Source: a virus. Taken from it: a DNA stretch of 64,000 nucleotides. A model generated the notes under the pieces. That model was given only the letters and a program-made list of their open reading frames with translations. It ran no database searches and was not told the origin of the DNA. The stretch's first letter is position 1; each line of letters starts with the position of its first letter. The stretch covers positions 26,726-90,725 of the IMG/VR virus record IMGVR_UViG_3300032220_001356; one strand, written 5' to 3'. Shown here piece after piece: positions 2,462 through 28,726 of this stretch. The position numbers and the translations under genes are program-made.

Positions 2462-3082
2462 ATGAATAAAGTTTGTATTATATGTAACAAGGAGTATGAA
2501 GCCAAGAATTGGGCTTCAAAAACTTGTTCTAATGAATGTAGGTTACAGCATAATAATAATAGAAAAAAGAAAACTATTCAAAATCATTTAGAAACATTTA
2601 ATTGTAAGTTTTGTAATAAAGAAGTTATTCGTTATAGAATAAGAAATGGTTTTTGTTCCCGTTCTTGTGCATCAAAAATGTATATACAAAATGGTACATA
2701 TAAAAATTGGATAAAATTTATACCAAAAAAAAGAACAGAAGAACAAAAAATAAATCACAAACTAAGAAAAAATGTTTCTAAAATAATTAGATTTTATTTA
2801 TTTAAGCAATTGATTCCAAAAAGTTCTTCTACATGGAAAAAGTTACCATACACACCAGAAGAACTTAGAAAACATCTTGAAAAACAATTTGATGAAAATA
2901 TGAATTGGGAAAATTATGGAATTTATTGGCATATTGACCATATTTATCCACAATCAAAATTGTTGTTTCAAAGTTTTGATGATGAAAATTTTATAAAATG
3001 TTGGTCATTAGATAATTTAAGGCCATTAGAAAAGATTGAAAATATAAAAAAAAGTAACAGGATAATAGATGAAAAAAATTAA
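2462..3082 (+). CDS. Free-standing HNH homing endonuclease with two N-terminal Zn-finger repeats
   Basis: CIIC..TCSNEC and CKFC..FCSRSC repeats; WHIDHIYP..CWSLDNLRPL...NIKKSN HNH core; very AT-rich. Confidence 0.85.
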   Translation: MNKVCIICNKEYEAKNWASKTCSNECRLQHNNNRKKKTIQNHLETFNCKFCNKEVIRYRIRNGFCSRSCASKMYIQNGTYKNWIKFIPKKRTEEQKINHKLRKNVSKIIRFYLFKQLIPKSSSTWKKLPYTPEELRKHLEKQFDENMNWENYGIYWHIDHIYPQSKLLFQSFDDENFIKCWSLDNLRPLEKIENIKKSNRIIDEKN

Positions 3083-4316
3083 AATTCTTACTCTGAGCGA
3101 CCACCCTTTCTCTCCTTCTGGCGTTGCTCATATGTCCAAAAATATTATTGAAGGTATGTTGGCTACCGGAAAGTATCAATTTATATCTTTTGGTGGTGCT
3201 ATCAAACATCAAGACTATCGACCACAAAAAACCGAACAATGGAAAGATGATTGGGTTATTTTTCCAGTTGATGGATATGGTTCGCAAGAGATGATTCGTT
3301 CTGTTCTGAGAACAGAACGTCCAGATATTATATGGTTTATGACTGACCCTCGTTTTTGGGGATGGTTATGGCAAATGGAAAACGAAATTAGACCAAATGT
3401 ACCTATGGTGTACTACCATGTTTGGGATAATTATCCATATCCAACATTTAATAGAAAGTTTTATCTTTCAAATGACCATATTGCAACCATTTCAAAACTT
3501 TCAGATGATATTGTTGCAAATGTAGCACCAGAAGTTGAAAGAACTTATGTTCCACACGCTGTTGACACAAATATCTTCAAAAGACTTTCGGAACAAGAAA
3601 TAGAAAAGTTTAAAAAAGAAACTCTCAATATTCAAGACGATAGATTTATTTTCTTCTGGAACAATAGAAACGCAAGACGCAAACAATCTGGTTCTGTTAT
3701 GTGGTGGTTTGCTGAATTTTTGAAGAAAACAAATAAAAAAGCAACTCTTATTATGCATACCGAAGTTAAAGATCAAAACGGACAAGATTTGGTTGCTATT
3801 ATGAACGAATTAGGGCTTACAAATAGAGAAATTCTTTTTTCTCAACAAAAGATGCCACCACAAAATCTAGCTTACTTTTATAATTTAGCAGATGCAACAA
3901 TTAACATCTCAGACGCAGAAGGCTTTGGACTTGCAACTCTTGAATCTCTTGCTTGTGAAACACCAATCATTGTTACAAAAACTGGTGGACTACAAGACCA
4001 AATTAGAAATGAAAAAGGAATTTTTGGAATTGAAATAGAACCATCATCAAGAGCAGTAATTGGTTCACAAGATGTACCATTTATTTATGAAGACAGAATC
4101 AGCCAAGAACAATTTGTTAGTGCTTTAGATACTTTTACAAATATTCCTAAAGAACAAAGAAAAACAATTGGACAACTTGGTAGAGAACACGTTATGAGTA
4201 ATTTTAACTTCGCTGATTTTATTAAGCGTTGGGATAATATATTTACTGACATTTATACCAATAAGGGCTCTTGGCCCAACAAATCATACAAAGCTTGGGA
4301 ATTGAAGGAAATCTAA
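3069..4316 (+). CDS. GT4-family glycosyltransferase
   Basis: SDHPFSPSG N-terminus, VPHAVD, NRNARRK, EGFGLATLESLACETPII. Confidence 0.9.
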   Translation: MKKIKILTLSDHPFSPSGVAHMSKNIIEGMLATGKYQFISFGGAIKHQDYRPQKTEQWKDDWVIFPVDGYGSQEMIRSVLRTERPDIIWFMTDPRFWGWLWQMENEIRPNVPMVYYHVWDNYPYPTFNRKFYLSNDHIATISKLSDDIVANVAPEVERTYVPHAVDTNIFKRLSEQEIEKFKKETLNIQDDRFIFFWNNRNARRKQSGSVMWWFAEFLKKTNKKATLIMHTEVKDQNGQDLVAIMNELGLTNREILFSQQKMPPQNLAYFYNLADATINISDAEGFGLATLESLACETPIIVTKTGGLQDQIRNEKGIFGIEIEPSSRAVIGSQDVPFIYEDRISQEQFVSALDTFTNIPKEQRKTIGQLGREHVMSNFNFADFIKRWDNIFTDIYTNKGSWPNKSYKAWELKEI

Positions 4317-6280
4317 TGAAAAAGAAAATATTAGTAACAGGTCCAGCACTTACTGCCTCTGGATATGGCGAACAATCTAGATTTGCATTGAGAGCACTAC
4401 GTTCAAGAGAAGATTTATTCGATATTTATCTTGCTGCTACTCCTTGGGGACAATGTGGCTGGATTCATGAAGATAACGAAGAAAGAGCATGGTTAGATAG
4501 TTTAATTATTAAAAATGCTCAGTACAATCAAGCTTCTAATGGACAACCACAATATGATATGTCGTTGCAAATTTCAATTCCCAACGAATGGAAAAAGCTA
4601 GCACCAATTAATATTGGATATACAGCAGGTATTGAAACTAATAAGATTTCTCCTCATTGGATTCAACCATCCAATCAAATGGATAAAATTATTGTTGTAT
4701 CTAACTTTGCAAAGAAAGGATTTGAAAACGGAGTCTATACTGCCACAGATCAAAGAACAGGTCAACAAATCCAAAACTTTAGATGCAATGCACCAATAGA
4801 GGTAGTTAATTACCCTGTTCGTCGCTTTGAATCAAGTGAGTTAGAACTAAATCTAACAACAGATTTTAATTTCCTTGTCGTCGCTCAAGGAGGACCAAGA
4901 AAGAATCTAGCAAATACACTCAAATGGTTTGTGGAAGAATTTAAAAACGATGAAAACGTTGGTTTAATTTGCAAGACTCATACTGCTGGTTCTTCTCAAA
5001 TTGATCGAGAAATGACAACGAATGCAATCAAGAATATCCTTGCAGAGCACACAGATAAGAAATGCAAAGTATACGTCCTCCACGGCGATATGAGCGAAGC
5101 AGAAATGGCAGGGCTCTATACCCATCCAAAAGTAAAAGCGTTGCTCTCGTTGTCTCACGGAGAGGGTTTTGGGCTTCCAATATTTGAGGCAGCATACTAC
5201 GGACTTCCAGTTATCACGACTGAGTGGTCTGGTCCTATGGACTTTATGTATTGTCCAAATAAAGAAGGTAAAGTTAAACCACACTTTGCAAGAGTTGATT
5301 TTACGCTTGGACCAATCCAACAAGAAGCAGTTTGGCAAGGTGTATTAGAAAAAGATACAATGTGGGCTTTCCCAAATCATCTTTCTGCCAAAGAAGCAAT
5401 GAGAGAAGTTTATAAGAATCACGATAGATTCCGTGGTCAAGCAAAACGTCTTGCTGCTCATGTTGAAAAACAATTTTCAAATGACAAAATGAACGAATTA
5501 TTTGTTCAACAAGTATATGGTAAAAAAGTAGAAAAATTTGATATCAATAGTCTACCAAAAATTTCATTAATTTCTTCTGTTTATAATTCAGATGAATATA
5601 TCGAACAGTTTATGGAAGATATTACAAGACAATCAATCTTTAAAGATAAATGTGAGTGGATTATTATCAATGCAAATTCTCCCGGCAATGAAGAAGAAGT
5701 TATTATGCGTTATGTTAACAAATATCCAAACATAATATACAAGCGTCTTGATTCGGACCCCGGTATTTATGCTACTTGGAATATGGCAATTAAAATGTCT
5801 ACAGGAGAGTTTATAACAAACGCAAATACTGACGATAGAAAATCACCAAACTCTTTGCTAGAACATGCAAAAACGCTTTTCCTAAATAAAGAAATCGACT
5901 TGGCATATTCCGATAGTTATATCACTCACGAAGCCAACAAAAGATGGGAAGATATAGATAAAAATAACTGTCAACGCTATAACTTTGAACAATTTTCACC
6001 CAAAGCAATGTTGAGAGGAAATTTGCCACATAACAATCCAATGTGGAGAAGAAGTTTGCACGAAAAATTTGGTTTTTTCAATGAAAACTATCGTTCTGCA
6101 TCAGATTGGGAATTTTGGCTAACTTGTGCTGCTGGTGGCTCCAAATTTATAAAGTGTGATATTCCATTAGGTATTTATTACTTCAATCCAAAAGGAATTT
6201 CAACAAATTTTGAAAACTTTTCTTGGAAACAAAAAGAAGAAGAGGAAATTTATACAAAATTTAGTAAGTTGATTAAATAA
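4316..6280 (+). CDS. GT4-GT2 fusion glycosyltransferase
   Basis: ATG overlaps the upstream TAA; SGYG, RKN and HGEGFGLPIFEAAYYGLPVI (GT4); then PKISLISSVYN, GIYATWN, NTDD, SASDWEFW (GT2). Confidence 0.9.
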   Translation: MKKKILVTGPALTASGYGEQSRFALRALRSREDLFDIYLAATPWGQCGWIHEDNEERAWLDSLIIKNAQYNQASNGQPQYDMSLQISIPNEWKKLAPINIGYTAGIETNKISPHWIQPSNQMDKIIVVSNFAKKGFENGVYTATDQRTGQQIQNFRCNAPIEVVNYPVRRFESSELELNLTTDFNFLVVAQGGPRKNLANTLKWFVEEFKNDENVGLICKTHTAGSSQIDREMTTNAIKNILAEHTDKKCKVYVLHGDMSEAEMAGLYTHPKVKALLSLSHGEGFGLPIFEAAYYGLPVITTEWSGPMDFMYCPNKEGKVKPHFARVDFTLGPIQQEAVWQGVLEKDTMWAFPNHLSAKEAMREVYKNHDRFRGQAKRLAAHVEKQFSNDKMNELFVQQVYGKKVEKFDINSLPKISLISSVYNSDEYIEQFMEDITRQSIFKDKCEWIIINANSPGNEEEVIMRYVNKYPNIIYKRLDSDPGIYATWNMAIKMSTGEFITNANTDDRKSPNSLLEHAKTLFLNKEIDLAYSDSYITHEANKRWEDIDKNNCQRYNFEQFSPKAMLRGNLPHNNPMWRRSLHEKFGFFNENYRSASDWEFWLTCAAGGSKFIKCDIPLGIYYFNPKGISTNFENFSWKQKEEEEIYTKFSKLIK

Positions 6281-7128
6281 TGAAAGTTATTTCGTATTCT
6301 TTATTTGAACCAAAACAACTACCTTTACATAGAGAGTGGGACAAGTGGAAAACAGAAAATCAAAGATATTGGTTTAATATACCAACAGTTATTTTATTAA
6401 ATAAAATTATATATCCAGATTATGTTTCAAAATTTTATTTGTCTCCAAATGTTTTTGAAAATCCTTTAAGTGAAATTTTTAATATTTTTGAAGTTGAATA
6501 TGAAGTAATCCAAAGAGAGTACAATTTTACCGAACCTGCTATCTGGAGAATGATGCCTCTTTGGGAAAGAGGCGTTGAAATATTCCATTCTAGAGATATT
6601 GATTCGTTAACCTCAGAAAATGAATATAGATATATAAAATCATTTGAAAATTCTGAATGTTGCGTTGGTACAATAAGAAGTCACGAAAATCATTATAATT
6701 TACCTTGTCGTATGCTTGCTGGTCTTTCTAGTTTTAAGCCAAACAAAATTCCTTTTTCTATAAAAGGTATTAATTTTGATATGTATTATTCTATGAAAGA
6801 CAGCAATTATGGTTCCGACCAAAACTTGTTAATTAAAACATTTACGTTCAACGAGGAATTTACAAAATCTAATTTTTTAGATTGTAAAATAGATAGACAA
6901 TTTAATAAGCAAGATTTTAATTGCTTAGAGGCAAACTTAAACAGCATAGAAATTAATAAAAAAATTGATACTATTTTCAAAAAAATAAAACAAACTACCA
7001 ACACTACTTGGCTTGGAGAACCCTGCGATTCTAGAGGAGAATTGTTAAATTATTTGCTTAATGAAAGAAATGATATTAGATTAAAAATTGCAAATAATAA
7101 AAATTTGTCACTATTTTACAAGGTTTAA
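6280..7128 (+). CDS. Uncharacterised glycosyltransferase-like protein
   Basis: MKVISYSLF, WRMMPL, SRDIDS (DxD), YGSDQ; embedded among GT genes. Confidence 0.5.
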   Translation: MKVISYSLFEPKQLPLHREWDKWKTENQRYWFNIPTVILLNKIIYPDYVSKFYLSPNVFENPLSEIFNIFEVEYEVIQREYNFTEPAIWRMMPLWERGVEIFHSRDIDSLTSENEYRYIKSFENSECCVGTIRSHENHYNLPCRMLAGLSSFKPNKIPFSIKGINFDMYYSMKDSNYGSDQNLLIKTFTFNEEFTKSNFLDCKIDRQFNKQDFNCLEANLNSIEINKKIDTIFKKIKQTTNTTWLGEPCDSRGELLNYLLNERNDIRLKIANNKNLSLFYKV

Positions 7129-7130
7129 CA

Positions 7131-7916
7131 ATGAGAATTTTTGTCGGCAAACAAACACCAGAACACAAGAGAGACACATCCAGAGAATTAATGGATATCT
7201 GGAAAGAAATGGGATTGTGTGAAATTATCGAAGGTGAAGTCGAGGATTATTTTATTTGGGCCAATGAGCCAAATGGAACTTTACTATACGAATATGACCG
7301 ATGGGATGTATTTCCTTTATTGCCACCTATATGGAAAAAAGGTTTATTTGCAGGTATGCAACATCCAAATGGAATGCCTTGGATATATTGGGGAAGAAGA
7401 CCAAAAATGTTGCATTCTAAAATAGAAAGCGGTTTAAAGTCATACGACACCAGACAAATTGAATCCATTTTTCTTGGAAAAGTAGAAAACGGCATTCAAT
7501 TAAACAATAGAACCACCCATGATTGGTCTAAATCAATAGAATTGTTTAGTATGCCAATTAAGATGGGAGATAGTTTTAATTGGCCTTTTACACAAGAAGA
7601 ATATTTAAACAAAGTCGCTGACTCTAAGTTTGGTCTTTGTCTTGCTGGATATGGTCCAAAATGCAATAGAGAAATAGAGTATTTAGGTCTTGGTGTTGTT
7701 CCAATTATTACTGAAAATGTATGTGTAAAATACCACGACCCACTTATTGAAGGTATGCATTACTTCAAAGTTTCAAACTCAGACCAAATAGATAAAACAA
7801 TCAAAGAATGTTCGAAAGATAGATGGGAATATATGTCTTATAATTGTAAAAAATGGTACAATAAAAACTGTTCCCCTCTTGGGTCTTTTGAAACAACATA
7901 CAATATATTAAAATAA
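7131..7916 (+). CDS. Exostosin/GT47-like glycosyltransferase
   Basis: EYLNKVADSKFGLCLAGYGPKCNREIEYLGLGVVPI C-terminal motif. Confidence 0.65.
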   Translation: MRIFVGKQTPEHKRDTSRELMDIWKEMGLCEIIEGEVEDYFIWANEPNGTLLYEYDRWDVFPLLPPIWKKGLFAGMQHPNGMPWIYWGRRPKMLHSKIESGLKSYDTRQIESIFLGKVENGIQLNNRTTHDWSKSIELFSMPIKMGDSFNWPFTQEEYLNKVADSKFGLCLAGYGPKCNREIEYLGLGVVPIITENVCVKYHDPLIEGMHYFKVSNSDQIDKTIKECSKDRWEYMSYNCKKWYNKNCSPLGSFETTYNILK

Positions 7917-8842
7917 TGAAAAATTTAAAAGTTAATTTTGTTGATTTTTGGGATAATTTTGATAAAGTTGATAACTATTTTTTTCATTTGTTATCAAACA
8001 ACTATAATGTAGAAATTTCCGAAAATCCAGATGTTTTGTTCTTTTCAGTCGATTATGCAAAAAGAAAAGAAAGAGACAAATATGTTAATCATAATTGTAA
8101 AAAAGTCTTTTTTACTGGAGAGAACATAAGACCCAACTTTTTTGTTCCCGGTTCTGTAGAATATCCCAGATATAGCATAGGTAAATGCGATTTTTCTTTT
8201 TCTTTTGATAATATGAATTTTTATAAAAACTATAGATTACCATTATGGATTTTGTACATAAATTGGTTTAATGTTCCGCACAACGATAACAGGGACCAAT
8301 CTTATTTAATACCATTAGATAATATATTAAATAAACAATTTTTTAATCCAAATAAGTTTTGTAATTTTGTTTTTTCTAATAATCAAGGTAAAAGATTAGA
8401 CATTCTTAATCATCTTAAAAAATACAAAAACATTGATTGTGCTGGAAGATTAGAAAATAATGTAAACTTTTCTATTCTTGGTAGAGGTGACCAAAAATAT
8501 AAAATTGATTTTATAAAAAACTATAAGTTTACAATTGCAGCAGAAAACTCTAAAACCGATGGTTACACAACTGAAAAAATAATTCATCCTTTATCGGTTG
8601 GTAGTATACCAATTTACTGGGGTTCATCAACAGTAAATAATGATTTTAATAAACAATGCTTTATTAACGTTGATAGTTTTTCAAACCTTGATGAATTGGT
8701 AGAGTATGTTATATATGTTGATAATTCAAAACAAGAATATGAAAAAATAATCAATGCTCCAATTTTTCCAAATAATAAAATACCAGAACAATTCATGCCC
8801 GATTCAATATTAAAATACTTTGAGGATTACATACTATGCTAA
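7916..8842 (+). CDS. GT10 alpha-1,3/4-fucosyltransferase
   Basis: FFTGEN, KFCNFVFSN, YKFTIAAENS..GYTTEKI..GSIPIYWG. Confidence 0.88.
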   Translation: MKNLKVNFVDFWDNFDKVDNYFFHLLSNNYNVEISENPDVLFFSVDYAKRKERDKYVNHNCKKVFFTGENIRPNFFVPGSVEYPRYSIGKCDFSFSFDNMNFYKNYRLPLWILYINWFNVPHNDNRDQSYLIPLDNILNKQFFNPNKFCNFVFSNNQGKRLDILNHLKKYKNIDCAGRLENNVNFSILGRGDQKYKIDFIKNYKFTIAAENSKTDGYTTEKIIHPLSVGSIPIYWGSSTVNNDFNKQCFINVDSFSNLDELVEYVIYVDNSKQEYEKIINAPIFPNNKIPEQFMPDSILKYFEDYILC

Positions 8843-9516
8843 ATGTAGAAAAAGTTTATATTGCTCATTACACAAAACTTATTGAAAGAAAACAAAGATT
8901 AGATGGTATCTTAAGAGAAAATGGAATAAAAGCAGAATATGTTTTTGATTTTGATAAAGACGTATTGACTGATGACATAATAAAAGAATATTATGTTTGT
9001 GATGAACAAAGTTATAATAATACTATTTCAAAAATTTATAAAAATGGCTCATTTAGAAAACTTAACTTGGCAGAAATTTCACTAACTATTAAGCATTGTT
9101 ATATAATGAAAAAAATAAGTAATGAATGTAAGGATTATGCTTTGGTCTTAGAAGATGATGTAGTTTTTGAAGATAGTTTTGTTGATAAATTCAACGATTA
9201 TCTTTCTAAAACTCCAAACGATTGGGATGTTATTTTTTTGGGCAATTGCTGTGGTCTAAGAATTCCAAAAGAACAGATTGTCGAAGGAAAAGTTGCTTAT
9301 GTAAAACAACATCCAGCGTCTAAATGTACTGACTCATTTTTAATTAAGAAGGAATTGGCAGAAAAGTTATCAAAAACAATGAAGCCATTTAATACTATTT
9401 GCGATTGGGAATATTCGTATCAATTTTATTTACACAACGCAAAAGTTTATTGGTGGGAGCCTACATTGGTTACACAAGGTTCTGAAAATGGTCTTTATAA
9501 ATCGGTATTGCGATGA
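8836..9516 (+). CDS. GT25-family glycosyltransferase
   Basis: ERKQRL, EISLTIKH, ALVLEDD, WDVIFLG, P.LVTQ. Confidence 0.8.
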   Translation: MLNVEKVYIAHYTKLIERKQRLDGILRENGIKAEYVFDFDKDVLTDDIIKEYYVCDEQSYNNTISKIYKNGSFRKLNLAEISLTIKHCYIMKKISNECKDYALVLEDDVVFEDSFVDKFNDYLSKTPNDWDVIFLGNCCGLRIPKEQIVEGKVAYVKQHPASKCTDSFLIKKELAEKLSKTMKPFNTICDWEYSYQFYLHNAKVYWWEPTLVTQGSENGLYKSVLR

Positions 9517-10634
9517 AAAAAATAAAAATTGCCTTTATTAAATTCGGCGGTTTATCTGCTGGTGGAACTGAAAAATACCTACAAACACTTGCTGCTAATT
9601 TACCAAAACAACAATTTGAGGTTGACTATTATTATACTGACGGCGTACCATTAGTTGGTAATAATTGGAAGCACCCAAATACTGACAAAGATAGAGTTGA
9701 ATATATGCTCTCTAATAACATAAATATTATTCATGTTAATTGTGAAGCAAGGGATGATAGATTTGGCCCACCATATGTTTGGATAAATTCAAATTTTTTT
9801 GAATTATTTAACTCAAAAAAATACGACATAATCCAAACAGGTCGTTCTGGGTATCAAGAATATCCTTTTTGTTCCATGAATAATGAAATATTCGTTGATA
9901 GTATACATGGCTATGGAGCACAGGGTATTGAAAAAAGAGATAACATTATTAAGACTGTTTTGCTTTCAAACACGCAAATAAAAAATTGGATTAGTAATGG
10001 TGGTGAAGAAAATAAAATTGTTTGTATTCCCCCTTTAATAGAGTTTCCAAAAAAACCTTTTATTTCACTAAGAAAGCAACTTAATATTAATGAAGATGTG
10101 TTTATTTATGGAATGCATCAAGGCAATAGAGAAGATATTTTCTCTGACATTCCACTTCAAGCATACAAACAAATAGAAAATGAAAAAACTTTGTTTTTAA
10201 TGTTAGGTGGAGCACAAAAATATAGAAATCAAGCGCAACAATTGAATATAAAAAATATAAAATTTTTAGATTTCAATGGTGATTCAAAATACATTAATGA
10301 TTTTGTTTATACACTAGATGTTTTTTCACACGGTAGGTTTGATGGTGAAGTATGCTCTGCGGCAATTATTGAAGCGTTATATCATGGCAAGCCAATTATT
10401 AGCCACCCAGCAATTAATAATGGTCATTTTGAGCAAATTGATGGTTGTGGTTTTATAGCACATTCTATTGATGAATATTCTAAAAAAATGCAACTTCTTT
10501 TTGACAACAAACAGATATATGATATATTGACAATGAACTGTTTATTAAAATATAATAATGTTTATAGTTTTGAAAAAAGTATAGACAAATACATCTCTTT
10601 ATACAAGGAAATTGTTTATGAAAGAAACATATAG
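9513..10634 (+). CDS. GT4-like glycosyltransferase
   Basis: AGGTEK N-terminal loop; LDVFSHGRFDGEVCSAAIIEALYHGKPII. Confidence 0.8.
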   Translation: MKKIKIAFIKFGGLSAGGTEKYLQTLAANLPKQQFEVDYYYTDGVPLVGNNWKHPNTDKDRVEYMLSNNINIIHVNCEARDDRFGPPYVWINSNFFELFNSKKYDIIQTGRSGYQEYPFCSMNNEIFVDSIHGYGAQGIEKRDNIIKTVLLSNTQIKNWISNGGEENKIVCIPPLIEFPKKPFISLRKQLNINEDVFIYGMHQGNREDIFSDIPLQAYKQIENEKTLFLMLGGAQKYRNQAQQLNIKNIKFLDFNGDSKYINDFVYTLDVFSHGRFDGEVCSAAIIEALYHGKPIISHPAINNGHFEQIDGCGFIAHSIDEYSKKMQLLFDNKQIYDILTMNCLLKYNNVYSFEKSIDKYISLYKEIVYERNI

Positions 10635-11199: not shown

Positions 11200-11203
11200 T
11201 AAA

Positions 11204-11905
11204 ATGAAAATCAAGATTTACTCAGATGGTGCCAATATCAACGAAATGATTGAGGCATATAACAACAAAACAGTTCAAGGATTTACAACTAACCCAACTC
11301 TCATGAGTAAGGCTGGTATTAAGGATTATAAAGGGTTTGCTATAGATGTTTTAAATAATATTAAAGATATGCCAATTTCATTTGAAGTATTTTCTGATAC
11401 TTTTGATGAAATGTATAAACAAGCAAAAATTTTAAATTCTCTTGGCGATAATGTATACGTTAAAATTCCAATTATGAACACAAAAGGGAAGCCTTCATAT
11501 AAACTCATAAATAAACTAGATTCTGAAAAAGTAAAATTAAATATTACTGCTGTTTTCACAACGAATCAAGTTTCTCGTATTCTAAAAAACGTCGATGGAA
11601 CTACTGCTCATATTATATCCATTTTTGCAGGTAGAATAGCAGATACAGGTATCGACCCAACTCCCATTATGAAAAAGAGTCTAAAGAAAATAAAATCACA
11701 TAGTCAATTATTACAACTTTTATGGGCTAGTCCAAGAGAGGTGCTAAATATTTATCAAGCCGATAAAATTGGATGCGATATTATTACAGTAACTCCTTCT
11801 ACATTAGACAAACTTTCGTTATCTAATAAAGACTTGAATGAATTTTCTAGAGAAACAGTTGAAATGTTTTACAATGACGCTTTAAAGTCGGGATTTTCTC
11901 TATGA
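11204..11905 (+). CDS. tal: Transaldolase (short TalC/MipB-type)
   Basis: GFTTNPTL, ISFEV, YVKIP (Schiff-base Lys), NITAVF, SIFAGRIAD, LWASPRE. Confidence 0.92.
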   Translation: MKIKIYSDGANINEMIEAYNNKTVQGFTTNPTLMSKAGIKDYKGFAIDVLNNIKDMPISFEVFSDTFDEMYKQAKILNSLGDNVYVKIPIMNTKGKPSYKLINKLDSEKVKLNITAVFTTNQVSRILKNVDGTTAHIISIFAGRIADTGIDPTPIMKKSLKKIKSHSQLLQLLWASPREVLNIYQADKIGCDIITVTPSTLDKLSLSNKDLNEFSRETVEMFYNDALKSGFSL

Positions 11906-12879
11906 TTATTGCTAAAGCACCACTTAGAATAACTCTTGCCGGAGGAGGTACTGATTTACCAGATTTTTATACAAAGTTTGGCGGCTCCGTTACAAGTATG
12001 GCAATTGACAAACATATTTTTGTTAGTTTTAAGAGAAATATATTAGATAATTTGGTTAGGCTTCGTTATTTAAAAACTGAAGAAGTAGAAACTATTAACA
12101 AACTAAGCAATGAAAGAGCGAGAGAATCATTGAAACATTTTAAAATTTTTGACCAATGTGAAATTACTAGTATTGGAGATTTACCTGCAAGCACAGGCTT
12201 GGGTTCATCTGGTAGTTATATTGTTTCATTAATTACTGCTATTCAACAATATAAAAAACTAAATATGTCCAAACATGACATTGCTGAATTGGCTTGTAAA
12301 ATTGAAATGGAAGAATTAAATGAACCAGTTGGTAAACAAGACCAGTTTATTGCTTCTTATGGTGGTATAAAAACATTTAATATCGATACCAACGGTAATG
12401 TAGAAGTTGAAAATTTTGATTTTAGTTCTGATGATTTAAAACATTTCATACAAAATAATAGAATTTACTATACTGGAATTCAAAGAAGTGCTTCTGAAGT
12501 TTTAAAATCTCAAAAAACAAATCAAACAAACTTTGAAGATAAAATGAAAAAAATAAGTGATTTAAGTTTAAAGTTTGTTACTGCATTAAAACAAAAAAAT
12601 TATGATTATTATGGTCAATTGTTAAATGAACATTGGATGCAAAAAAAAGCACTTTCTCCTTGTATGACAACCAATAATGTTGAACAAATTTATTATGATT
12701 TGATGAATAATAATAAAATATTTGGTGGCAAAATTATTGGTGCAGGCGGTGGAGGATTTTTGTTGGTATATTGTAATAAAGACCATTCATATGTAGATAA
12801 TTATATGCAATCAAAGGGTATGCTTAGATTGGACTATAATGTTGATTTTGATGGTGCAAATATTGTTTATGAGTCATAA
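11902..12879 (+). CDS. GHMP-family sugar-phosphate 1-kinase (HddA-like)
   Basis: APLRITLAGGGTD, PASTGLGSSG, GKQDQF, GGKIIGAGGGG. Confidence 0.9.
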   Translation: MIIAKAPLRITLAGGGTDLPDFYTKFGGSVTSMAIDKHIFVSFKRNILDNLVRLRYLKTEEVETINKLSNERARESLKHFKIFDQCEITSIGDLPASTGLGSSGSYIVSLITAIQQYKKLNMSKHDIAELACKIEMEELNEPVGKQDQFIASYGGIKTFNIDTNGNVEVENFDFSSDDLKHFIQNNRIYYTGIQRSASEVLKSQKTNQTNFEDKMKKISDLSLKFVTALKQKNYDYYGQLLNEHWMQKKALSPCMTTNNVEQIYYDLMNNNKIFGGKIIGAGGGGFLLVYCNKDHSYVDNYMQSKGMLRLDYNVDFDGANIVYES

Positions 12880-13582
12880 CATGGTTTATTGCTTCGATAT
12901 AGATAACACCATTTGTATTACCAATGGAAATGATTATAAAAATGCTGTTCCAATCAAAAAGGCAGTAGACGAAATCAACAAGTTATATCAAGATAATAAT
13001 ATAATCAAACTCTTTACAGCCAGAGGTACAACATCTAAAATTGATTGGACAGAGTTTACTATAAATCAACTTTCACAATGGGGTTTAAAATATCATGAAC
13101 TAATCATGAATATTAAGCCTAGTTTTGATTTGTTAATTGATGATAGAGCAATTAATGCAAATGATTGGCTAAAAACAATTGATAAAAAAGTAGGTTTTTT
13201 GGCTGGTTCCTTTGACTTAATACATCCGGGCTATATTTTAATGTTTCAAGATGCCAAAAAGTATTGTAATCATCTAATAGTCGGATTACAGACTGACCCA
13301 ACTATGGATAGACCAACTAAAAATAAACCAGTTCAAACAATAGAAGAGAGAAAAATCATTCTTTCTTCAATTAAATATATTGATGAAATTATTATATATG
13401 AAACTGAAAAAGATTTATATAATTTGTTGAAAAATAACAAAATTGATATTAGAATATTAGGTAGCGATTATGAAGATAAGATATACAATGGTTATGATTT
13501 AAATATACCTGTTTATTTTCATAAAAGAAATCACGATTGGTCTACAACTAATTTAAAAAATAAAATAAGGAATTCATTATGA
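12869..13582 (+). CDS. HAD phosphatase fused to a class-I (HxGH-type) nucleotidyltransferase
   Basis: FDIDNT, FTARG, KP, IDD (HAD); GSFDLIHPGY, IVGLQTDP, KP...EER, LGSDY, STT (TagD/HldC-like); start at 12869 or 12881. Confidence 0.85.
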   Translation: MSHNMVYCFDIDNTICITNGNDYKNAVPIKKAVDEINKLYQDNNIIKLFTARGTTSKIDWTEFTINQLSQWGLKYHELIMNIKPSFDLLIDDRAINANDWLKTIDKKVGFLAGSFDLIHPGYILMFQDAKKYCNHLIVGLQTDPTMDRPTKNKPVQTIEERKIILSSIKYIDEIIIYETEKDLYNLLKNNKIDIRILGSDYEDKIYNGYDLNIPVYFHKRNHDWSTTNLKNKIRNSL

Positions 13583-14484
13583 AAAAAGCAATTGTTACAG
13601 GCGGTAATGGTTTTATTGGTAGTAACTTAGTTGATAATTTGGTAGATTTAGGAATCGAAACTATTGTTATCGATAATAATTCTGCTGAATGTAACGAAAG
13701 ATTCTATTTCAATGAAAAAGCAAAAAATTACAAATATGACATTTGTGATTATGATAAAATTCTTCCCTTATTTAAGGGCGTTGATGTTGTATTTCATTTA
13801 GCAGCAGAATCCAGAATTCAACCATCAATTCTTAATCCAACATATGCAACAAAAGTAAATGTTTTAGGAACTTGTAATATTTTACAAGCCGCAAGAGAAA
13901 ATAACGTAGACAGAGTTATTTATTCTTCAACGTCTGCTGGTTATGGCTTGAAAAATTCGCCCCCTCTCAGAGAAGATATGCCAAAAGATTGTCTAAATCC
14001 ATATTCTGTTACCAAGTGTGCTGGCGAAGAACTTTGTGTTATGTACAATAACTTGTTTGGTCTTAAAACTATCTCACTCAGATATTTTAACGTATATGGT
14101 AATAGAGAACCAGTTAAGGGGCAATATGCGCCAGTAGTTGGTTTGTTTTTGAGACAATTTAGAAACAACGAAGCAATGACCGTTGTTGGTGATGGACTAC
14201 AAAGAAGAGATTTTACAAATGTGCAAGATGTAGTTCAAGCAAATATTCTTGCCGGTACTACTACAAATTTACAAGCATTTGGAGAAGTTTATAATGTAGG
14301 TACTGGTATTAACCATTCTGTACTGGAATTGGCACAATTTATTGGTGGTAAATACGAATTTATTGATTCACGAATTGGTGAAGCACGAAACACATTAGCA
14401 GATAATAGTAAAATTAAAAATTATCTAAATTGGCAACCAAAAGTTGATTTTCTTGATTATCTTAAAAAGGAACTTAATAAATGA
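13579..14484 (+). CDS. NAD-dependent nucleotide-sugar epimerase/dehydratase (SDR)
   Basis: TGGNGFIG, FHLAA, YSSTS, PYSVTK, LRYFNVYG, GDGLQRRDF. Confidence 0.92.
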   Translation: MKKAIVTGGNGFIGSNLVDNLVDLGIETIVIDNNSAECNERFYFNEKAKNYKYDICDYDKILPLFKGVDVVFHLAAESRIQPSILNPTYATKVNVLGTCNILQAARENNVDRVIYSSTSAGYGLKNSPPLREDMPKDCLNPYSVTKCAGEELCVMYNNLFGLKTISLRYFNVYGNREPVKGQYAPVVGLFLRQFRNNEAMTVVGDGLQRRDFTNVQDVVQANILAGTTTNLQAFGEVYNVGTGINHSVLELAQFIGGKYEFIDSRIGEARNTLADNSKIKNYLNWQPKVDFLDYLKKELNK

Positions 14485-15245
14485 TTTCAGATGATAATAT
14501 AGTTTTTAATGAAAATTATAAATGTAATTTTTGTACTGATGGTCGTGCATATCAAACGGTTGAAAATTATGCAAGATATAGTTTTCCATATTTTTCAAAT
14601 AAAAAAGATGATGAAGTAAAAACTATTTTAGTTATTGGAGCGTATGAAGGGCAAGAAATAACTTATTATTTGCATAAATACAAAAATGCAACAATTTACG
14701 CTTTTGAACCAATTGAGAGCGTGTTCAATAGATTAGTTAATACTTTTGGAAGCATTGAGAGAGTTAAACTTTACAATTTTGCAGTTGCAGATTTTACAGG
14801 AGAAAGTAATTTTTATATTTTATCTAGTAATTTAAATAATACTGCCGATGGTAGCAGTAGTTTGCTGGAATTCCACGCAGATAAATTGGGGCACAACTAT
14901 AAAATTGGCAATATTGTAAAAGTAAAAACAATTAAATTAGATGATATTGAAGAGTTGAGCAACAAAGACATAGATTATATGCAAGTTGATGTTCAAGGTG
15001 CCGAACTTTTAGTGCTAAAAGGTTCAACTAAAATTTTAAAAAATGTAAAAACATTAATGTTAGAAGTTAAAACCGAAGAATACACCGAAGCATGGGACGC
15101 ACCAGACTTTCAAATGTACAAAGGTATGTGTTATCTACAAGATTTAATTGACTTTCTTAAATATTTTAATATTAAACCATATTTAGTTGGCGTAGATAAC
15201 GAAAGTAAAAACGGACAAGGAAATTCATTTTGGATTAGGAGTTAA
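14481..15245 (+). CDS. FkbM-family methyltransferase
   Basis: IGAYEG, YAFEP, SSSLL, IKLDD, VDVQGAELLVLKG. Confidence 0.85.
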   Translation: MISDDNIVFNENYKCNFCTDGRAYQTVENYARYSFPYFSNKKDDEVKTILVIGAYEGQEITYYLHKYKNATIYAFEPIESVFNRLVNTFGSIERVKLYNFAVADFTGESNFYILSSNLNNTADGSSSLLEFHADKLGHNYKIGNIVKVKTIKLDDIEELSNKDIDYMQVDVQGAELLVLKGSTKILKNVKTLMLEVKTEEYTEAWDAPDFQMYKGMCYLQDLIDFLKYFNIKPYLVGVDNESKNGQGNSFWIRS

Positions 15246-15246
15246 A

Positions 15247-15933: not shown

Positions 15934-15936
15934 TTT

Positions 15937-16584
15937 ATGTTTGAAAGACAACAAGGTTCAAAAACAAAAACCAAAAACCAAGAAACACATATTTTAGTTT
16001 ACGATAGACATTTGGGTGGTTGTTCACTTACTGGCGATGGTGCTACATATTATCCAAGAATGTGGACATATATGGTTAATAAATTTAGCTTTAAATCTGC
16101 TATTGATATTGGATGTGGTGCAGGACATTCTACAGAATATTTTCAACATTTAGGATTAGAAATACATGGTGTAGAAGGCTGTAAGGAAGCAGCAGAAAAT
16201 TGTCTAATTGATAAAAAATTTATTAAAATACATGATTACGAAAATGATGGTGCTTATGTACCGCATAAAGATTATGATTTAGGGTGGTCATGTGAATTTG
16301 TTGAACACGTTGAAAAAAATTGTATGCAAAACTTTTTTGAAACATTTAAAAAATGTAAATATTTAGCTATTACTTATGCTTATCCCGGTCAAGGTGGGCA
16401 CCATCACGTTAATGAACAGCCAGAACAATTTTGGTTAAATGAAATATCAAAAATTGGATTTACATATGATGCCGAAACAACCGCAGAATTAAGAGAAATA
16501 GCTAGACAAGATTGCGAAGTTCACTCTCCTTTTTACACTTCACATTTTATTAATAGAGGCTTGTTTTTTAAAAGAAATTATTAG
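15937..16584 (+). CDS. Class I SAM-dependent methyltransferase
   Basis: IDIGCGAG, GVEG, CEFVEHV, PGQGGHHHVNEQ. Confidence 0.82.
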   Translation: MFERQQGSKTKTKNQETHILVYDRHLGGCSLTGDGATYYPRMWTYMVNKFSFKSAIDIGCGAGHSTEYFQHLGLEIHGVEGCKEAAENCLIDKKFIKIHDYENDGAYVPHKDYDLGWSCEFVEHVEKNCMQNFFETFKKCKYLAITYAYPGQGGHHHVNEQPEQFWLNEISKIGFTYDAETTAELREIARQDCEVHSPFYTSHFINRGLFFKRNY

Positions 16585-16640
16585 AAATTTTTTTCATAAT
16601 AATATATGATATTATAAAAAAAATAACAAAGAGAAAATAA

Positions 16641-17561
16641 ATGATTTTAGTTACTGGTGGCTCTGGAATGGTTGGAAAAGCTTTAATGCAATCTATTCCA
16701 GATGCTTTTTATATATCTTCTGACAATTGTAATTTAACAAGCGAAAACGACACCAAATATATGTTTAAGCACTTAAAGCCAACGAAGGTAATCCATCTTG
16801 CTGCAAAAGTCGGTGGTGTAAAAGCAAACATGGAACAACTTGGTGAATTTTATACAGATAACATAAGAATTAATACAAACGTTTTACACTATTCTATGGT
16901 TTATAAAGTTGAAAAAGTTCTTTCCCTATTAAGTACCTGTATATACCCAGATAATGTCACATATCCTCTTACAGAAGAACAAATACATAATGGGCCACCA
17001 CACGAATCTAATTTTGCTTATGCATATGCAAAAAGAATGATTGATATTCAATCAAGAGCATATAGAAAGCAATATGGCTGCAATTTTATTACTGCTGTGC
17101 CAAACAATTTATTTGGAGAGGATGATAATTTTGATTTAAATAACTCTCATGTTATTCCTGCAATTATTAGAAAAATGTATGAAGCAAAACAAAAAAATGA
17201 AGATGTTGTTTTGTGGGGGGATGGAACTCCGTTGCGTGAATTTACATATTCAAAAGATTTGGCACAAACATTGATGTTTCTTCTTGATAACTATGATGGT
17301 GAAAATCCAATTAATGTTGGAAACACTAACAATTACTCAATTAAGCAAATTGCAGAATTAATAGCATTAAAATTAAAATATAAAGGAAATATTATTTGGG
17401 ACACTTCCAAGCCAAGTGGGCAGTTTAAAAAACCTTCTGATAATTCAAAATTAATTGAACTTGGATTTGATAAAAATGGTTATACTAATATAGATATTGC
17501 CTTGACAAATACTTGTAATTGGTTTACATTAAATTATCCAAATATTAGAGGAATTAAATGA
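16641..17561 (+). CDS. fcl: GDP-L-fucose synthase
   Basis: TGGSGMVG, HLAAKVGG, LSTCIYP, YAYAK, SHVIPA, WGDGTPLREF. Confidence 0.93.
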   Translation: MILVTGGSGMVGKALMQSIPDAFYISSDNCNLTSENDTKYMFKHLKPTKVIHLAAKVGGVKANMEQLGEFYTDNIRINTNVLHYSMVYKVEKVLSLLSTCIYPDNVTYPLTEEQIHNGPPHESNFAYAYAKRMIDIQSRAYRKQYGCNFITAVPNNLFGEDDNFDLNNSHVIPAIIRKMYEAKQKNEDVVLWGDGTPLREFTYSKDLAQTLMFLLDNYDGENPINVGNTNNYSIKQIAELIALKLKYKGNIIWDTSKPSGQFKKPSDNSKLIELGFDKNGYTNIDIALTNTCNWFTLNYPNIRGIK

Positions 17562-18538
17562 AAACTGCGCTAATAACAGGCGTAACGGGACAAGATGGTT
17601 CCTATTTAGCAGAATTATTATTATCTAAAAACTACAAAGTTATTGGTCTTAAAAGAAGAACATCTTTGTTGTGTACAGATAGAATTGATAAATTTTACAA
17701 TCATCCAAATTTTGTACTTGAATATTTTGAATTAGATGACCCATCTTGCATGTATAGAATTTTAAGCAAATATAAACCCGATGAAGTTTATAATCTTGCT
17801 GCTCAATCGCACGTTAGAGTATCGTTTGATATTCCACAAAGTACGATTAATACAATTGTGATGGGCACTTTAAATCTTGTTGAAGCAGTACGAAATGTAT
17901 GTCCACATGCAAAATTTTATCAAGCATCTTCATCTGAAATGTTTGGAGACAATCCAAATTTTCCCTATACTGAAGAAAGTAAGTTAACGCCAGCATCACC
18001 ATATGCAAATGCAAAAGTATTTGCTCATAATTTAATGCGTAATTATAGAATGTCTTACAATATGTTCGCTTGTTCTGGTATTTTATTTAATCACGAATCT
18101 CCAAGGAGAGGCGAAACATTTGTAACAAGAAAAATTACTTTAGCAGCAGCAAAAATTAAATTTGGGCTACAAGATAAATTGTATTTAGGAAACTTAGATG
18201 CTGTAAGAGATTGGGGATTTGCTGGCGATTATGTCGAAGCAATGTGGCTTATGTTACAACAAGAAAAAGCCGACGACTACGTAATCGCAACTGGCAAAGC
18301 ATATTCGGTTAGAGAGTTTTTAAACTTAGTTTTTGAGCACGCCGAATTGACAGTACAAAAATATGTCGAAACTGATACAAGGTTGTTTAGACCACATGAA
18401 GTTCCATTTCTTTTGGGTGATTCTACAAAAGCACAAAATTTACTAAACTGGAAACCAAAAACAGATTTAAAAACATTAGCTACCATGATGTATGAAGAAG
18501 ACTTTAATAATATAAAAAAACAAATGGATAAAAAATGA
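17558..18538 (+). CDS. gmd: GDP-mannose 4,6-dehydratase
   Basis: TGVTGQDGSYLAE, NLAAQSHV, QASSSE, SPYANAK, GILFNHESPRRGETFVTRKI. Confidence 0.97.
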   Translation: MKTALITGVTGQDGSYLAELLLSKNYKVIGLKRRTSLLCTDRIDKFYNHPNFVLEYFELDDPSCMYRILSKYKPDEVYNLAAQSHVRVSFDIPQSTINTIVMGTLNLVEAVRNVCPHAKFYQASSSEMFGDNPNFPYTEESKLTPASPYANAKVFAHNLMRNYRMSYNMFACSGILFNHESPRRGETFVTRKITLAAAKIKFGLQDKLYLGNLDAVRDWGFAGDYVEAMWLMLQQEKADDYVIATGKAYSVREFLNLVFEHAELTVQKYVETDTRLFRPHEVPFLLGDSTKAQNLLNWKPKTDLKTLATMMYEEDFNNIKKQMDKK

Positions 18539-19368
18539 AAAAAATTGGTATAGTTGGTAATGGTTTTGTGGGTAATGCAATATATCAAAATTTAAAAAAT
18601 TCTTGTAATGTTAAAGTATACGATATTGATAAAAATAGATGCTTTAATCAATTAGATGAAATTTATAAATGTGAAATCATATTTGTATGCTTACCAACGC
18701 CTATGATTAGTAGCGAAGGTGGAAAATGTAATTTAAGTATAATAAACAATTTCTTTCAAAATGTACCTAAATTTTGTAAATCTTTATTTGTTATAAAATC
18801 AACCGTACCTATTGGCACTACTAAACAAATAAAAGAAACAAGAAAAGATTTGATTATTTGCCATAATCCAGAGTTTTTAACCGCAATAAATGCAGTAGAA
18901 GATTTTAAAAATTCAGATAGGAATATAATAGGCGGTGACGAAAACGAAGTTAAACCACTTTATGATTTGTTTATTGATATGTTTCCAAATTCAAAAATTT
19001 TAGTCGTTAGTTCAAATGAATCAGAAACTATAAAATATTTTTCTAACACATTTTTAGCAACAAAAGTTGCATTTTTTAACATTATGCACGATATTAGTGT
19101 AAAATATGATATGAATTATCTTTCTCTAGTTGAAGGTGTTTGTAGCGATAATAGGATAGGGCACTCACATTCAAGAGTCCCCGGACCAGATGGAGATAAG
19201 GGTTTTGGTGGTTCTTGTTTTCCAAAAGATATAAACTCATTAATATATATTTTGAAAGAAAATAATGTTAATTATCAAATATTTAATGATATTTGGAATT
19301 ATAATAAAAGTATAAGAAAAAATTGGGATTGGTCAAACAATCCTTCTGCCGTTAATAATAAGGAGTAA
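18535..19368 (+). CDS. UDP-glucose/GDP-mannose dehydrogenase family protein (short form lacking the C-terminal domain)
   Basis: GNGFVG, CLPTP, IKSTVP, NPEFL, E.IKYFSN, GFGGSCFPKD; only 277 aa. Confidence 0.88.
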   Translation: MKKIGIVGNGFVGNAIYQNLKNSCNVKVYDIDKNRCFNQLDEIYKCEIIFVCLPTPMISSEGGKCNLSIINNFFQNVPKFCKSLFVIKSTVPIGTTKQIKETRKDLIICHNPEFLTAINAVEDFKNSDRNIIGGDENEVKPLYDLFIDMFPNSKILVVSSNESETIKYFSNTFLATKVAFFNIMHDISVKYDMNYLSLVEGVCSDNRIGHSHSRVPGPDGDKGFGGSCFPKDINSLIYILKENNVNYQIFNDIWNYNKSIRKNWDWSNNPSAVNNKE

Positions 19369-19370: not shown

Positions 19371-19547
19371 ATGCAACTTTCAAATCAAGCAGTAGGTGCC
19401 CTCATGTTGGCACTTCAAAAGTCACTTATGGAACAAGCAGATATCGTTCCAATGTTAAAAGATTTTGTGTTCATAACATCAGAAGATGGTCTTGTCGTTA
19501 CCAACCCACCAGTTGTACAATTTGAACAACCATCAGTAGATGAATAA
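19371..19547 (+). CDS. Small hypothetical protein (58 aa; below the ORF-track cut-off)
   Basis: AAGGAG RBS; MQLSNQAVGALMLALQKSLMEQADIVPMLKDFVFITSEDGLVVTNPPVVQFEQPSVDE; TAATG overlap with the next gene. Confidence 0.8.
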   Translation: MQLSNQAVGALMLALQKSLMEQADIVPMLKDFVFITSEDGLVVTNPPVVQFEQPSVDE

Positions 19548-26855: not shown

Positions 26856-26856
26856 A

Positions 26857-28725: not shown

Positions 28726-28726
28726 A

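Follow-up and report, generated by a model that had tools for sequence, protein, structure and literature searches.

A glycan-building gene island headed by a conserved glycosyltransferase pair in a divergent T4-like myovirus, and its candidate acceptors

The DNA considered here is a stretch of 64,000 nucleotides (the window) from the IMG/VR virus record IMGVR_UViG_3300032220_001356. Its subject is an island of sugar-related genes at window positions 3069-19368. Within its contig of 90.7 kb, which CheckV estimates to be about 50% complete, the window occupies the final 64 kb. The phage backbone is that of a divergent T4-like myovirus, with genes for the baseplate wedge (phrog_219/261), the large terminase subunit (TerL, phrog_2), the portal, a primase and an SbcCD-like nuclease. 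The terminase is nearest to those of Flavobacterium phage vB_FspM_immuto and Microcystis phage Mel-JY01 (42-43% identity), ahead of those of T4-like cyanophages at about 34%. A marine setting follows from the Tara Oceans labels on homologues of two island proteins. The G+C content is about 30% all along the window, and the composition of the island is not set apart from it. A search for near-identical DNA in cultured phages found none.

Gene content of the island

The island consists of 18 plus-strand open reading frames (ORFs). At 16 of the 17 junctions neighbouring ORFs overlap or are separated by 3 nucleotides or fewer; the sole larger gap measures 56 nucleotides (16584-16641). The contiguous and mostly coupled arrangement given in the preliminary description of this DNA is thereby borne out. 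The genes are listed below; GT stands for glycosyltransferase, LOS and LPS for lipooligosaccharide and lipopolysaccharide, and SDR for short-chain dehydrogenase/reductase.

3069-4316, plus strand: GT4a, conserved head glycosyltransferase (GT-B fold, retaining, GT4), 415 amino acids; Pfam Glycos_transf_1, 50 bits
4316-6280, plus strand: GT4b (residues 1 to about 420) fused to a C-terminal GT2; Pfam Glycos_transf_1 and Glycos_transf_2
6280-7128, plus strand: GT-A fold glycosyltransferase, GT8-like by predicted fold, with a DxD motif
7131-7916, plus strand: GT-B glycosyltransferase, GT47/exostosin-like by predicted fold and ESM Atlas
7916-8842, plus strand: GT10, alpha-1,3-fucosyltransferase-like; Pfam Glyco_transf_10, 75.5 bits, and FucT_N, 74.5 bits
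8836-9516, plus strand: GT25 (LOS/LPS-type galactosyltransferase family); Pfam Glyco_transf_25, 36.6 bits against a cut-off of 24
9513-10634, plus strand: third GT4, in the variable cassette; Pfam Glycos_transf_1, 29.7 bits; no counterpart in relatives
10612-11199, plus strand: SIS isomerase, GmhA-like (sedoheptulose-7-phosphate isomerase); TIGR00441 gmhA, 51 bits, below cut-off; Pfam SIS_2
11186-11905, plus strand: transaldolase, supplying sedoheptulose-7-phosphate; TIGR02134, 314 bits, above the cut-off of 282
11902-12879, plus strand: GHMP sugar kinase, HddA-like (heptose-7-phosphate 1-kinase); top match NF049969 HddA, 132 bits, below cut-off; Pfam GHMP_kinases_N/C
12839-13582, plus strand: fusion of a capsule-type phosphatase (N-terminal) with a cytidylyl/adenylyl-transferase (C-terminal, RfaE domain II-like)
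13579-14484, plus strand: SDR nucleotide-sugar epimerase/dehydratase; Pfam Epimerase, 190 bits; GalE, LegB and heptose-epimerase models all below cut-off
14481-15245, plus strand: FkbM-family methyltransferase; Pfam Methyltransf_21, 62.5 bits
15247-15933, plus strand: TylF-type sugar O-methyltransferase; Pfam TylF, 45.8 bits
15937-16584, plus strand: class I S-adenosylmethionine (SAM) methyltransferase; Pfam Methyltransf_11, 28.3 bits
16641-17561, plus strand: GDP-L-fucose synthase (Fcl)-like SDR; top match NF047922, 250 bits, below the cut-off of 500
17558-18538, plus strand: GDP-mannose 4,6-dehydratase (Gmd); TIGR01472, 432 bits, above the cut-off of 415
18535-19368, plus strand: truncated Ugd-like nucleotide-sugar 6-dehydrogenase, 277 amino acids, covering profile positions 73-298 of 413

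Eight GT domains from six families are thus distributed over seven genes. The preliminary description had counted at least seven domains from five families; the glycosyltransferases it named are real, and the count was raised by the GT8-like protein at 6280-7128, which had been left unassigned. Neither this protein nor the product of 7131-7916 has a Pfam or NCBIfam match, and both were folded with alignments of 34 sequences (pLDDT 94 in each case). The AlphaFold model of the 6280-7128 product was matched by Foldseek to the GT8 protein 3tzt, TarP, LgtC and the catalytic domain of UGGT (E about 1e-4, TMq about 0.4). The two aspartates of its DxD motif, D106 and D108, are invariant among 34 homologues, and ESM Atlas gave a weak lead to viral GT8 clusters. 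The best PDB fold matches of the 7131-7916 product are EXTL3 and EXT1-EXT2 (E 2e-5, TMq 0.56), followed by GtfC. Among the viral folds in BFVD it comes closest to an exostosin GT47 protein from Synechococcus phage S-SKS1, and in ESM Atlas it falls with RXYLT1_C/Exostosin clusters at 0.96. The "GT47-like" label that it had received from the letters alone is therefore supported by fold despite the missing Pfam match. Both Pfam-less proteins sit in virus-dominated protein clusters. For GT4b, the listed ATG at 4316 has an alternative TTG at 4271, and the GT4 half reaches to about position 5570.

The GDP-L-fucose route from GDP-mannose is covered by Gmd and Fcl, with a GT10/FucT_N fucosyltransferase in the same island. 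Assignment of a host through Gmd was dropped, as its identities to bacterial proteins reached 55-63% at best and were scattered over many phyla. For a nucleotide-diphosphate (NDP)-heptose, the GmhA-like isomerase, the HddA-like kinase, the phosphatase-nucleotidyltransferase fusion and the SDR protein provide every step of the five-step route from sedoheptulose-7-phosphate. The heptose-route matches all lie below the curated NCBIfam equivalog cut-offs, and the exact sugar and nucleotide are thus not fixed. In the fusion protein, TIGR01689 covers residues 19-110, while TIGR02199 and CTP_transf_like cover residues 111-244; its listed start is probably over-extended.

The Ugd-like protein retains the GxGxxG motif and the catalytic cysteine, ends about 40 residues past this cysteine and lacks the entire C-terminal UDP-binding domain, which makes a uronic-acid donor doubtful. 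A frameshift was considered as the source of the truncation and rejected, because the 179 nucleotides after the stop codon are too few for the missing domain of about 130 amino acids. The gene may be decaying, or it may encode an enzyme with altered substrate. A relative with 32% identity is carried by one of the related loci described below (L015). Of the donor routes claimed earlier, those to GDP-fucose and to a higher-carbon sugar accordingly stand, and that to a uronic acid does not. The three methyltransferases reported at the same time were recovered as FkbM, TylF and Methyltransf_11 proteins. To call the island "self-contained" was an overstatement, since GDP-mannose, UDP-sugars, sedoheptulose-7-phosphate and SAM must be supplied by the host.

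A conserved GT4 pair followed by a swapped cassette

Scanning IMG/VR with GT4a yielded 15 related uncultured loci. GT4a is present in all 15 at 54-79% identity, and at about 33% in immuto, Mel-JY01 and Rhodothermus phage RM378. The GT4 half of GT4b is found at 45-78% identity in every relative whose locus extends that far. A small conserved gene set, a Cas4-like nuclease and GT4a are common to the 15 relatives, and PhoH is found in 14 of them. The rest of the island has no counterpart in these relatives beyond distant paralogues. The flanks that frame it in the window are as follows.

36-563: PhoH
1640-2404, plus strand: Cas4-like PD-(D/E)XK nuclease, left flank; Pfam PDDEXK_1, PADLOC Cas4; 42-68% identity in relatives
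19547-20791, plus strand: right flank, with a Zn-ribbon protein, a small transmembrane protein and a gp55-like late sigma candidate

The gp55-like gene (20108-20791, plus strand) matches the late sigma family phrog_234 weakly over its full length (E 5e-4) and has no Pfam match. It is kept at 56-62% identity in four related records (G001, G002, G004 and G005). On the longer contigs, the swapped stretch takes up 7-15 kb between the GT4 pair and the shared right flank, after which the baseplate genes follow; in the window they start about 11 kb downstream of the island. Among the 103 ORFs found downstream of the pair in the relatives, the commonest encode SDR epimerases/dehydratases, DegT aminotransferases, RmlC, CMP-sugar synthetases, methyltransferases and GT2; GT7 is also present. 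The C-terminal partner of GT4b (window 5570-6280) varies likewise, being a GT2 here and in L004 and missing from most relatives. In L003, the GT4b of which is 78% identical, an unrelated domain of about 250 amino acids occupies the same fusion junction (L003:12510-13233). The variable cassette of this closest relative also encodes a 224-amino-acid protein with Glyco_transf_7N and 7C domains, of the eukaryote-type beta-1,4-galactosyltransferase family (L003:13226-13900).

The same order recurs in cultured phages. In immuto, the nuclease (gp183) is followed by two GT4 proteins (gp181 and gp180) and then by sugar genes: a GT2, two aminotransferases, a methyltransferase, a mannosyltransferase, a 'pilin glycosylation protein', an epimerase and another glycosyltransferase. 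Mel-JY01 shows this order with an IMP dehydrogenase/GMP reductase gene between the nuclease and the pair. In RM378 the pair stands alone (p013, p014), and ribonucleotide reductase comes directly after it. As RM378 has the pair alone and immuto and Mel-JY01 carry it too, the pair evidently functions with no cassette and in hosts from three phyla; this speaks for an acceptor that is phage-intrinsic or universal. With more than 7,700 clusters of GT4a at 90% identity in metagenomes, carried on contigs of up to about 180 kb, the clade is evidently very abundant. In the passages of the literature that were examined, no description was found of the invariant and probably heterodimeric GT4 head that extends from RM378 to the marine lineage, or of fixed flanks enclosing a swapped interior in the manner of an O-antigen locus.

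Immuto also encodes a full 7-deazaguanine DNA-modification set (FolE, QueD, QueE, QueC, QueF and DpdA; NC_055915, 18607-37015). Its annotated ThyA is unusually long at 423 amino acids; the marine relatives that were searched gave no match to PF00303.

GT4a and GT4b are 22% identical and each matches phrog_2170 over the full length, so that by sequence the two are distant paralogues. The EX7E motif of GT4a (E284...E292) and its R/K motif are nearly invariant across the lineage, immuto and Mel-JY01. In GT4b the EX7E motif (E298...E306 when numbered from 4271) is invariant and the R/K motif is kept. Because the EX7E glutamates and the basic phosphate-binding residues are retained, both enzymes are probably active. 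In GT-B enzymes, the acceptor is bound by the N-terminal domain and the donor by the C-terminal domain. The two domains are about equally conserved in each protein (64 and 62% in GT4a, 56 and 55% in GT4b), and it can be supposed that neither the acceptor nor the donor of the head pair changes within the clade.

A complex of the two proteins was modelled with an ipSAE of 0.87 in three runs, against 0.59 for the best control. Among solved complexes, 58 of 80 attained the ipSAE mark, compared with 2 of 110 mismatched pairs. The runs share at least 98% of their contacts, and the partner pLDDT is 91. In the modelled interface, the invariant G-S-W C-terminal tail of GT4a and its conserved WLWQMENEIRP segment face a beta-strand of the GT4b C-terminal domain. 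GT4a and GT4b thus probably form a heterodimer, according to these models.

The best PDB sequence matches of GT4a are GT4 enzymes such as BshA, MshA and sucrose-phosphate synthase, and the protein reaches 31 bits against Pfam GT4-conflict (cut-off 26). Its tblastn matches to actinophage GT4 proteins are weak (Tetrasphaera phage TJE1, 22% identity; Rhodococcus phage NiceHouse, E 7e-4). The enzymes matched in the PDB act on small molecules, and an acceptor that is soluble without belonging to the virion would be in keeping with them: a non-structural phage protein, a cytoplasmic host protein, a small molecule or a free oligosaccharide, modified for counter-defence or metabolism. The position of the pair beside the Cas4-like nuclease and PhoH, outside the structural operon, would also fit. 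This explanation is nevertheless improbable. The PDB and GT4-conflict matches mostly concern the generic donor-binding half, and GT4-conflict scores below Glycos_transf_1. None of the glycosyltransferases matches a PADLOC family, the Cas4 models being matched by the flanking nuclease only. A strain-specific, methylated glycan with several branches is hard to explain on an intracellular small molecule, and the hypervariability suggests an exposed product.

Several neighbouring genes deserve mention. The product of 646-1329 (plus strand) is kept in 15 of 15 relatives at 33-45% identity. Its sole match is to PF07737, the anthrax lethal factor N/C domain, below threshold (23 bits against a cut-off of 27.4), and it may have a metallopeptidase-like fold. 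Between the Cas4-like nuclease and GT4a lies an ORF of 206 amino acids (2462-3082, plus strand) with CxxC pairs and an H-N-H-like C-terminus, which weakly matches phrog_1035 endonuclease VII and GmrSD_C. None of the 15 relatives has this ORF, GT4a there following within about 20 nucleotides of the nuclease; its product is probably a homing endonuclease of a mobile kind. Upstream of the ORF lies an inverted repeat whose stem measures 11 bp (about 2410-2452). Beyond the right flank, five large ORFs (20794-22203, 22513-23835 and 24795-30652, plus strand) precede the baseplate wedge and have no counterpart in G001, G002, G004 and G005. They presumably encode fibres or receptor-binding proteins and form a second hypervariable stretch that directly adjoins the glycan island.

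Candidate acceptors of the glycan

According to a Kyte-Doolittle scan, no island protein contains a transmembrane segment, one probably over-extended start being set aside. The segment predicted at that start, the N-terminus of the 12839-13582 product, was rejected as an anchor because it falls within the 41-nucleotide overlap with the preceding gene. ORFs with four or more transmembrane segments were found neither in this contig nor in the relative G001 (185.6 kb, 92% complete). In five lineage records, this 92%-complete relative among them, profile searches whose positive controls matched detected no Wzx flippase (PF01943 Polysacc_synt) and no priming transferase (PF02397 Bac_transf; PF00953 Glycos_transf_4, WecA/MraY). 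The locus therefore lacks the priming transferase and multi-pass exporter of O-antigen or capsule loci that depend on Wzx/Wzy or on ABC transporters. The preliminary description had noted the missing flippase, priming enzyme and membrane anchors correctly. It had also concluded from the missing export genes that the acceptor is soluble, which their absence does not by itself imply. Glycosyltransferases of the LOS/LPS-core type (GT4, GT25, GT10, heptose) are peripheral; they extend the lipid A-core or lipid carriers primed by the host, and the host MsbA or Wzx carries out the export. Since such enzymes rely on the host in this way, missing export genes do not exclude a target on the host surface.

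Remodelling of the host envelope is hence a competing explanation. The glycosyltransferases would extend lipid A-core or a host-primed undecaprenyl-diphosphate sugar at the inner face of the membrane, and host MsbA/Wzx and a ligase would export the product. The altered surface could, for example, block superinfection or prevent re-adsorption of the progeny. The families GT25, GT10 and GT4, the NDP-heptose route and the Ugd-like gene are typical of LOS/LPS, the assembly of which generally requires neither a phage flippase nor a phage priming enzyme. Turnover of the cassette at strain level would fit the diversity of host O-antigens. The island also adjoins the hypervariable putative fibre genes at 24795-30652, as in the 'host recognition cluster' of pelagimyophages, for which modification of the O-chain has been proposed (Zaragoza-Solas et al. 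2020, PMC7029224). The same interpretation has been given for cyanophages S-SCSM2R and P-SSM2 (PMC12801897). This explanation is considered unlikely, if by no means far-fetched, on three grounds. The head pair, its acceptor-side domain included, is kept in phages of Bacteroidota, Cyanobacteria and Rhodothermota, which are not expected to share a host-specific glycan acceptor. RM378 retains the pair without any cassette. The two Pfam-less cassette glycosyltransferases, with their virus-dominated clusters, do not look like recent captures from a host, and Gmd is only 55-63% identical to any bacterial protein.

DNA has to be considered as an acceptor as well. The glycosyltransferases might act on a modified base, as in T4, in the arabinosyl-5-hydroxycytosine (5hoC) of RB69/DLP3 or in clusters combining a methyltransferase, 5mYOX and a glycosyltransferase. 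LPS-related phage enzymes of the GT-A and GT-B folds have been reported to build mono- to trisaccharides, including heptose, on 5-hydroxymethylcytosine (5hmC) (bioRxiv 10.1101/2023.12.21.572611). In the window, the pair adjoins a nuclease and the HNH endonuclease candidate at 2462-3082. The published routes to DNA glycans that were examined start either from a thymidylate-synthase homologue (giving 5hmC, 5-hydroxymethyluracil or 5hoC) or from a 5mYOX dioxygenase, which may be accompanied by a C5-methyltransferase (bioRxiv 10.1101/2023.12.21.572611; PMC13326640). Thymidylate synthase (PF00303) was absent from four lineage records (G000-G003, the 92%-complete relative included), while the control matched in 10 genomes. 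C5-methyltransferase (PF00145) was absent from the same four records, and its positive control matched. Tet_JBP (PF12851) gave no match, but its control matched nowhere either. The lineage thus lacks the thymidylate-synthase homologue that makes the hydroxylated base in DNA-hypermodification clusters. DNA is a very unlikely acceptor because neither a thymidylate-synthase homologue nor a C5-methyltransferase was found in the lineage; in addition, eight GT domains and three methyltransferases are far in excess of any known DNA glycan.

A protein of the phage particle is suggested by the motif [ST][GAS][ST], which occurs in four baseplate-region proteins 3-4 times as often as expected from composition-shuffled sequences (z 4.5-9.8). 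The observed and expected numbers are as follows.

Window 32869: 18 observed, 5.9 expected
Window 34295: 66 observed, 22 expected
Window 50509-51543: 13 observed, 4.4 expected
Window 51553-52725: 15 observed, 3.5 expected

No enzyme of the contig shows a comparable excess. The excess is retained in the G001 orthologues of all four proteins. T4 gp34-37, of similar serine plus threonine content and from a phage with no protein-glycosylation system, show none. In cultured phages, orthologues of the motif-rich proteins are limited to a partial match in Mel-JY01. As a signal of the acceptor, the enrichment is suggestive only. The strongest [ST][GAS][ST] excess of the G001 genome (also listed as L022) is found in a 550-amino-acid protein, perhaps of the sheath or capsid, downstream of the terminase and portal genes (contig positions 86741-88393; 31 observed against 9.3 expected, z 7.4). 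The counterpart of this protein falls past the end of the window.

The explanation preferred here, to which a probability of roughly 0.45 is assigned, is that a conserved acceptor encoded by the phage, probably baseplate or fibre proteins, is glycosylated in the cytoplasm. The synthesis would proceed in two tiers. In the first, the heterodimer of GT4a (3069-4316) and GT4b (4316 to about 5570) would place the first sugar or sugars, taken from ordinary host nucleotide sugars, on an acceptor that is constant across the deep 'Far-T4' myophage clade. In the second, the swappable cassette between the pair and the gp55-like gene would extend them; here it comprises six more GT domains (GT2, GT8-like, GT47-like, GT10, GT25 and GT4) and is completed by the three methyltransferases. 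Its private donors would be GDP-fucose, made from host GDP-mannose, and an NDP-heptose made from sedoheptulose-7-phosphate, the supply of which would be boosted by the phage transaldolase. The product would be a branched, methylated, fucosylated, heptose-containing and strain-specific oligosaccharide. The acceptor would be a particle protein, for which the [ST][GAS][ST]-rich baseplate and fibre proteins 13-33 kb downstream are the candidates. A virion protein is favoured because the acceptor appears conserved, the site lies a short way upstream of the late sigma candidate and the baseplate genes, hypervariability is to be expected of an exposed structure and the two Pfam-less cassette glycosyltransferases belong to virus-dominated clusters.

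Several points weigh against glycosylation of virion proteins. GT25, GT10, GT4, the heptose route and Ugd constitute the classic LOS/LPS-core toolkit, which works without transmembrane anchors on lipid-linked acceptors of the host, and similar islands of pelagimyophages and cyanomyophages are read as host O-chain modification in the respective reports (PMC7029224, PMC12801897). The one feature that ties the glycosyltransferases to virion proteins is the [ST][GAS][ST] enrichment. This could instead reflect fibre or beta-helix structure, and the control consists of four T4 proteins. One control of the complex modelling was fairly high (0.59), and two GT-B folds may have been docked by their likeness to solved GT-B dimers. 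The contig that carries the window represents only about 50% of the genome. Promoter-like motifs are not enriched and give no assignment to early or late expression: across the window, the T4-type motif TATAAATA has 10 matches against 12 expected, and the motif (C/A)TA(T/A)TTA proposed in the preliminary description has 104 against 117 expected. The assembly in the cytoplasm on soluble acceptors, most simply virion proteins, proposed in that description is partly supported and retains the solubility of all island proteins, the missing export and priming functions, the low likelihood of DNA and the conserved head pair in its favour, whereas its last step, to the virion, depends on the motif enrichment.

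A broader proposal is put forward tentatively. The abundant 'Far-T4' clade, comprising RM378, Immutovirus, Mel-JY01 and the marine lineage, might display variable glycotypes on its own particles, with GT4a/GT4b starting O-glycosylation at Ser/Thr-small-Ser/Thr sites and the cassette elaborating the glycan. If so, these glycotypes would be the phage counterpart of bacterial O-antigen serotypes, under selection on adsorption, decoys or grazing. Sugar gene clusters of marine T4-like phages are usually filed as 'auxiliary metabolic genes' for host LPS. The conserved head in cultured phages of three phyla makes the question of the acceptor testable in phages that can be grown, such as immuto and Mel-JY01. 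Should the acceptor belong to the virion, complex strain-specific glycosylation would be common among abundant ocean phages. The consequences would extend to host recognition, to the stability and stickiness of particles and to carbon export, as well as to the reading of structural proteins in proteomics and cryo-EM. Should the acceptor belong to the host envelope, the conserved pair would suggest that phages rewrite a universal lipid-linked target during infection.

Comparison with known systems

In the chlorovirus PBCV-1, soluble viral glycosyltransferases (A064R, A075L and others) and methyltransferases build a branched, fucosylated and methylated capsid glycan, and viral Gmd, together with a GMER/Fcl-type enzyme, provides the GDP-fucose. 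It differs from the present phage in being a eukaryotic virus with N-linked glycans on its major capsid protein. The links, by fold or sequence, are weak: B736L (3oy2) matches GT4a at E 7e-8, and A075L (8avq/8asa) matches the 7131-7916 product at E about 7e-3.

The closest system in logic is GtfA/GtfB. In Gram-positive bacteria, these neighbouring GT-B paralogues assemble into a complex that initiates the O-glycosylation of serine-rich-repeat (SRR) adhesins in the cytoplasm, and variable glycosyltransferases then extend the glycan in a strain-specific manner. Two adjacent GT-B paralogues are present here as well, their complex being predicted by the model (0.87 against 0.59 for the best control). 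GtfB is catalytically inactive, while both phage GT4 proteins keep EX7E; a dead subunit is thus missing, and the pair is not a member of the GtfA/GtfB family. In contrast to GtfA/GtfB, there is no accessory Sec system, and the putative substrates carry short scattered motifs rather than long SRR domains.

The bacterial LOS outer-core loci (lgt/lic2 of Neisseria and Haemophilus, FucT of Helicobacter pylori, the heptose genes of Campylobacter) use the same GT25, GT10, GT4, heptose and GDP-fucose families. They, too, encode soluble or peripheral enzymes and have no flippase or polymerase dedicated to them. Unlike these loci, which act on the lipid A-core of their own cell, the present locus belongs to a lytic phage and begins with a GT4 pair that is shared by phages whose hosts are unrelated.

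O-glycosylation of the virion has been described for the mycobacteriophages Che8 (gp108-110), Corndog and Myrna, in which the phage supplies soluble glycosyltransferases and methyltransferases that decorate its capsid or tail proteins inside the cytoplasm, without export, as summarised in later papers (PMC12363180, PMC12619734). As described there, each system consists of 2-4 genes, the sugars are attached to C-terminal tails of capsid and tail-tube subunits, and the hosts are Actinobacteria; the present one has 18 genes, private donors and a hypervariable cassette, and its glycosylation is predicted from the genes alone.

The islands of the host recognition cluster (HRC) type in pelagimyophages (PMC7029224) and in cyanophages P-SSM2, S-SCSM1 and S-SCSM2R (PMC12801897) are alike in setting, being non-syntenic islands of T4-like marine myoviruses beside tail-fibre and baseplate genes. 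The features shared with them are many soluble glycosyltransferases (GT2, GT10, GT25, GT4), rfaE/heptose genes, Ugd and epimerases; for S-SCSM2R, 13 glycosyltransferases are given (PMC12801897). The present phage is neither a pelagimyophage nor a cyanomyophage, its terminase being nearest to those of immuto and Mel-JY01. The pelagimyophage island is defined as lying between VrlC and gp14; here a Cas4-like nuclease and a gp55-like gene form the flanks, and the position probably differs. By gene content, the locus adds one more case to the hypervariable glycan/LPS islands known from aquatic T4-like phages.

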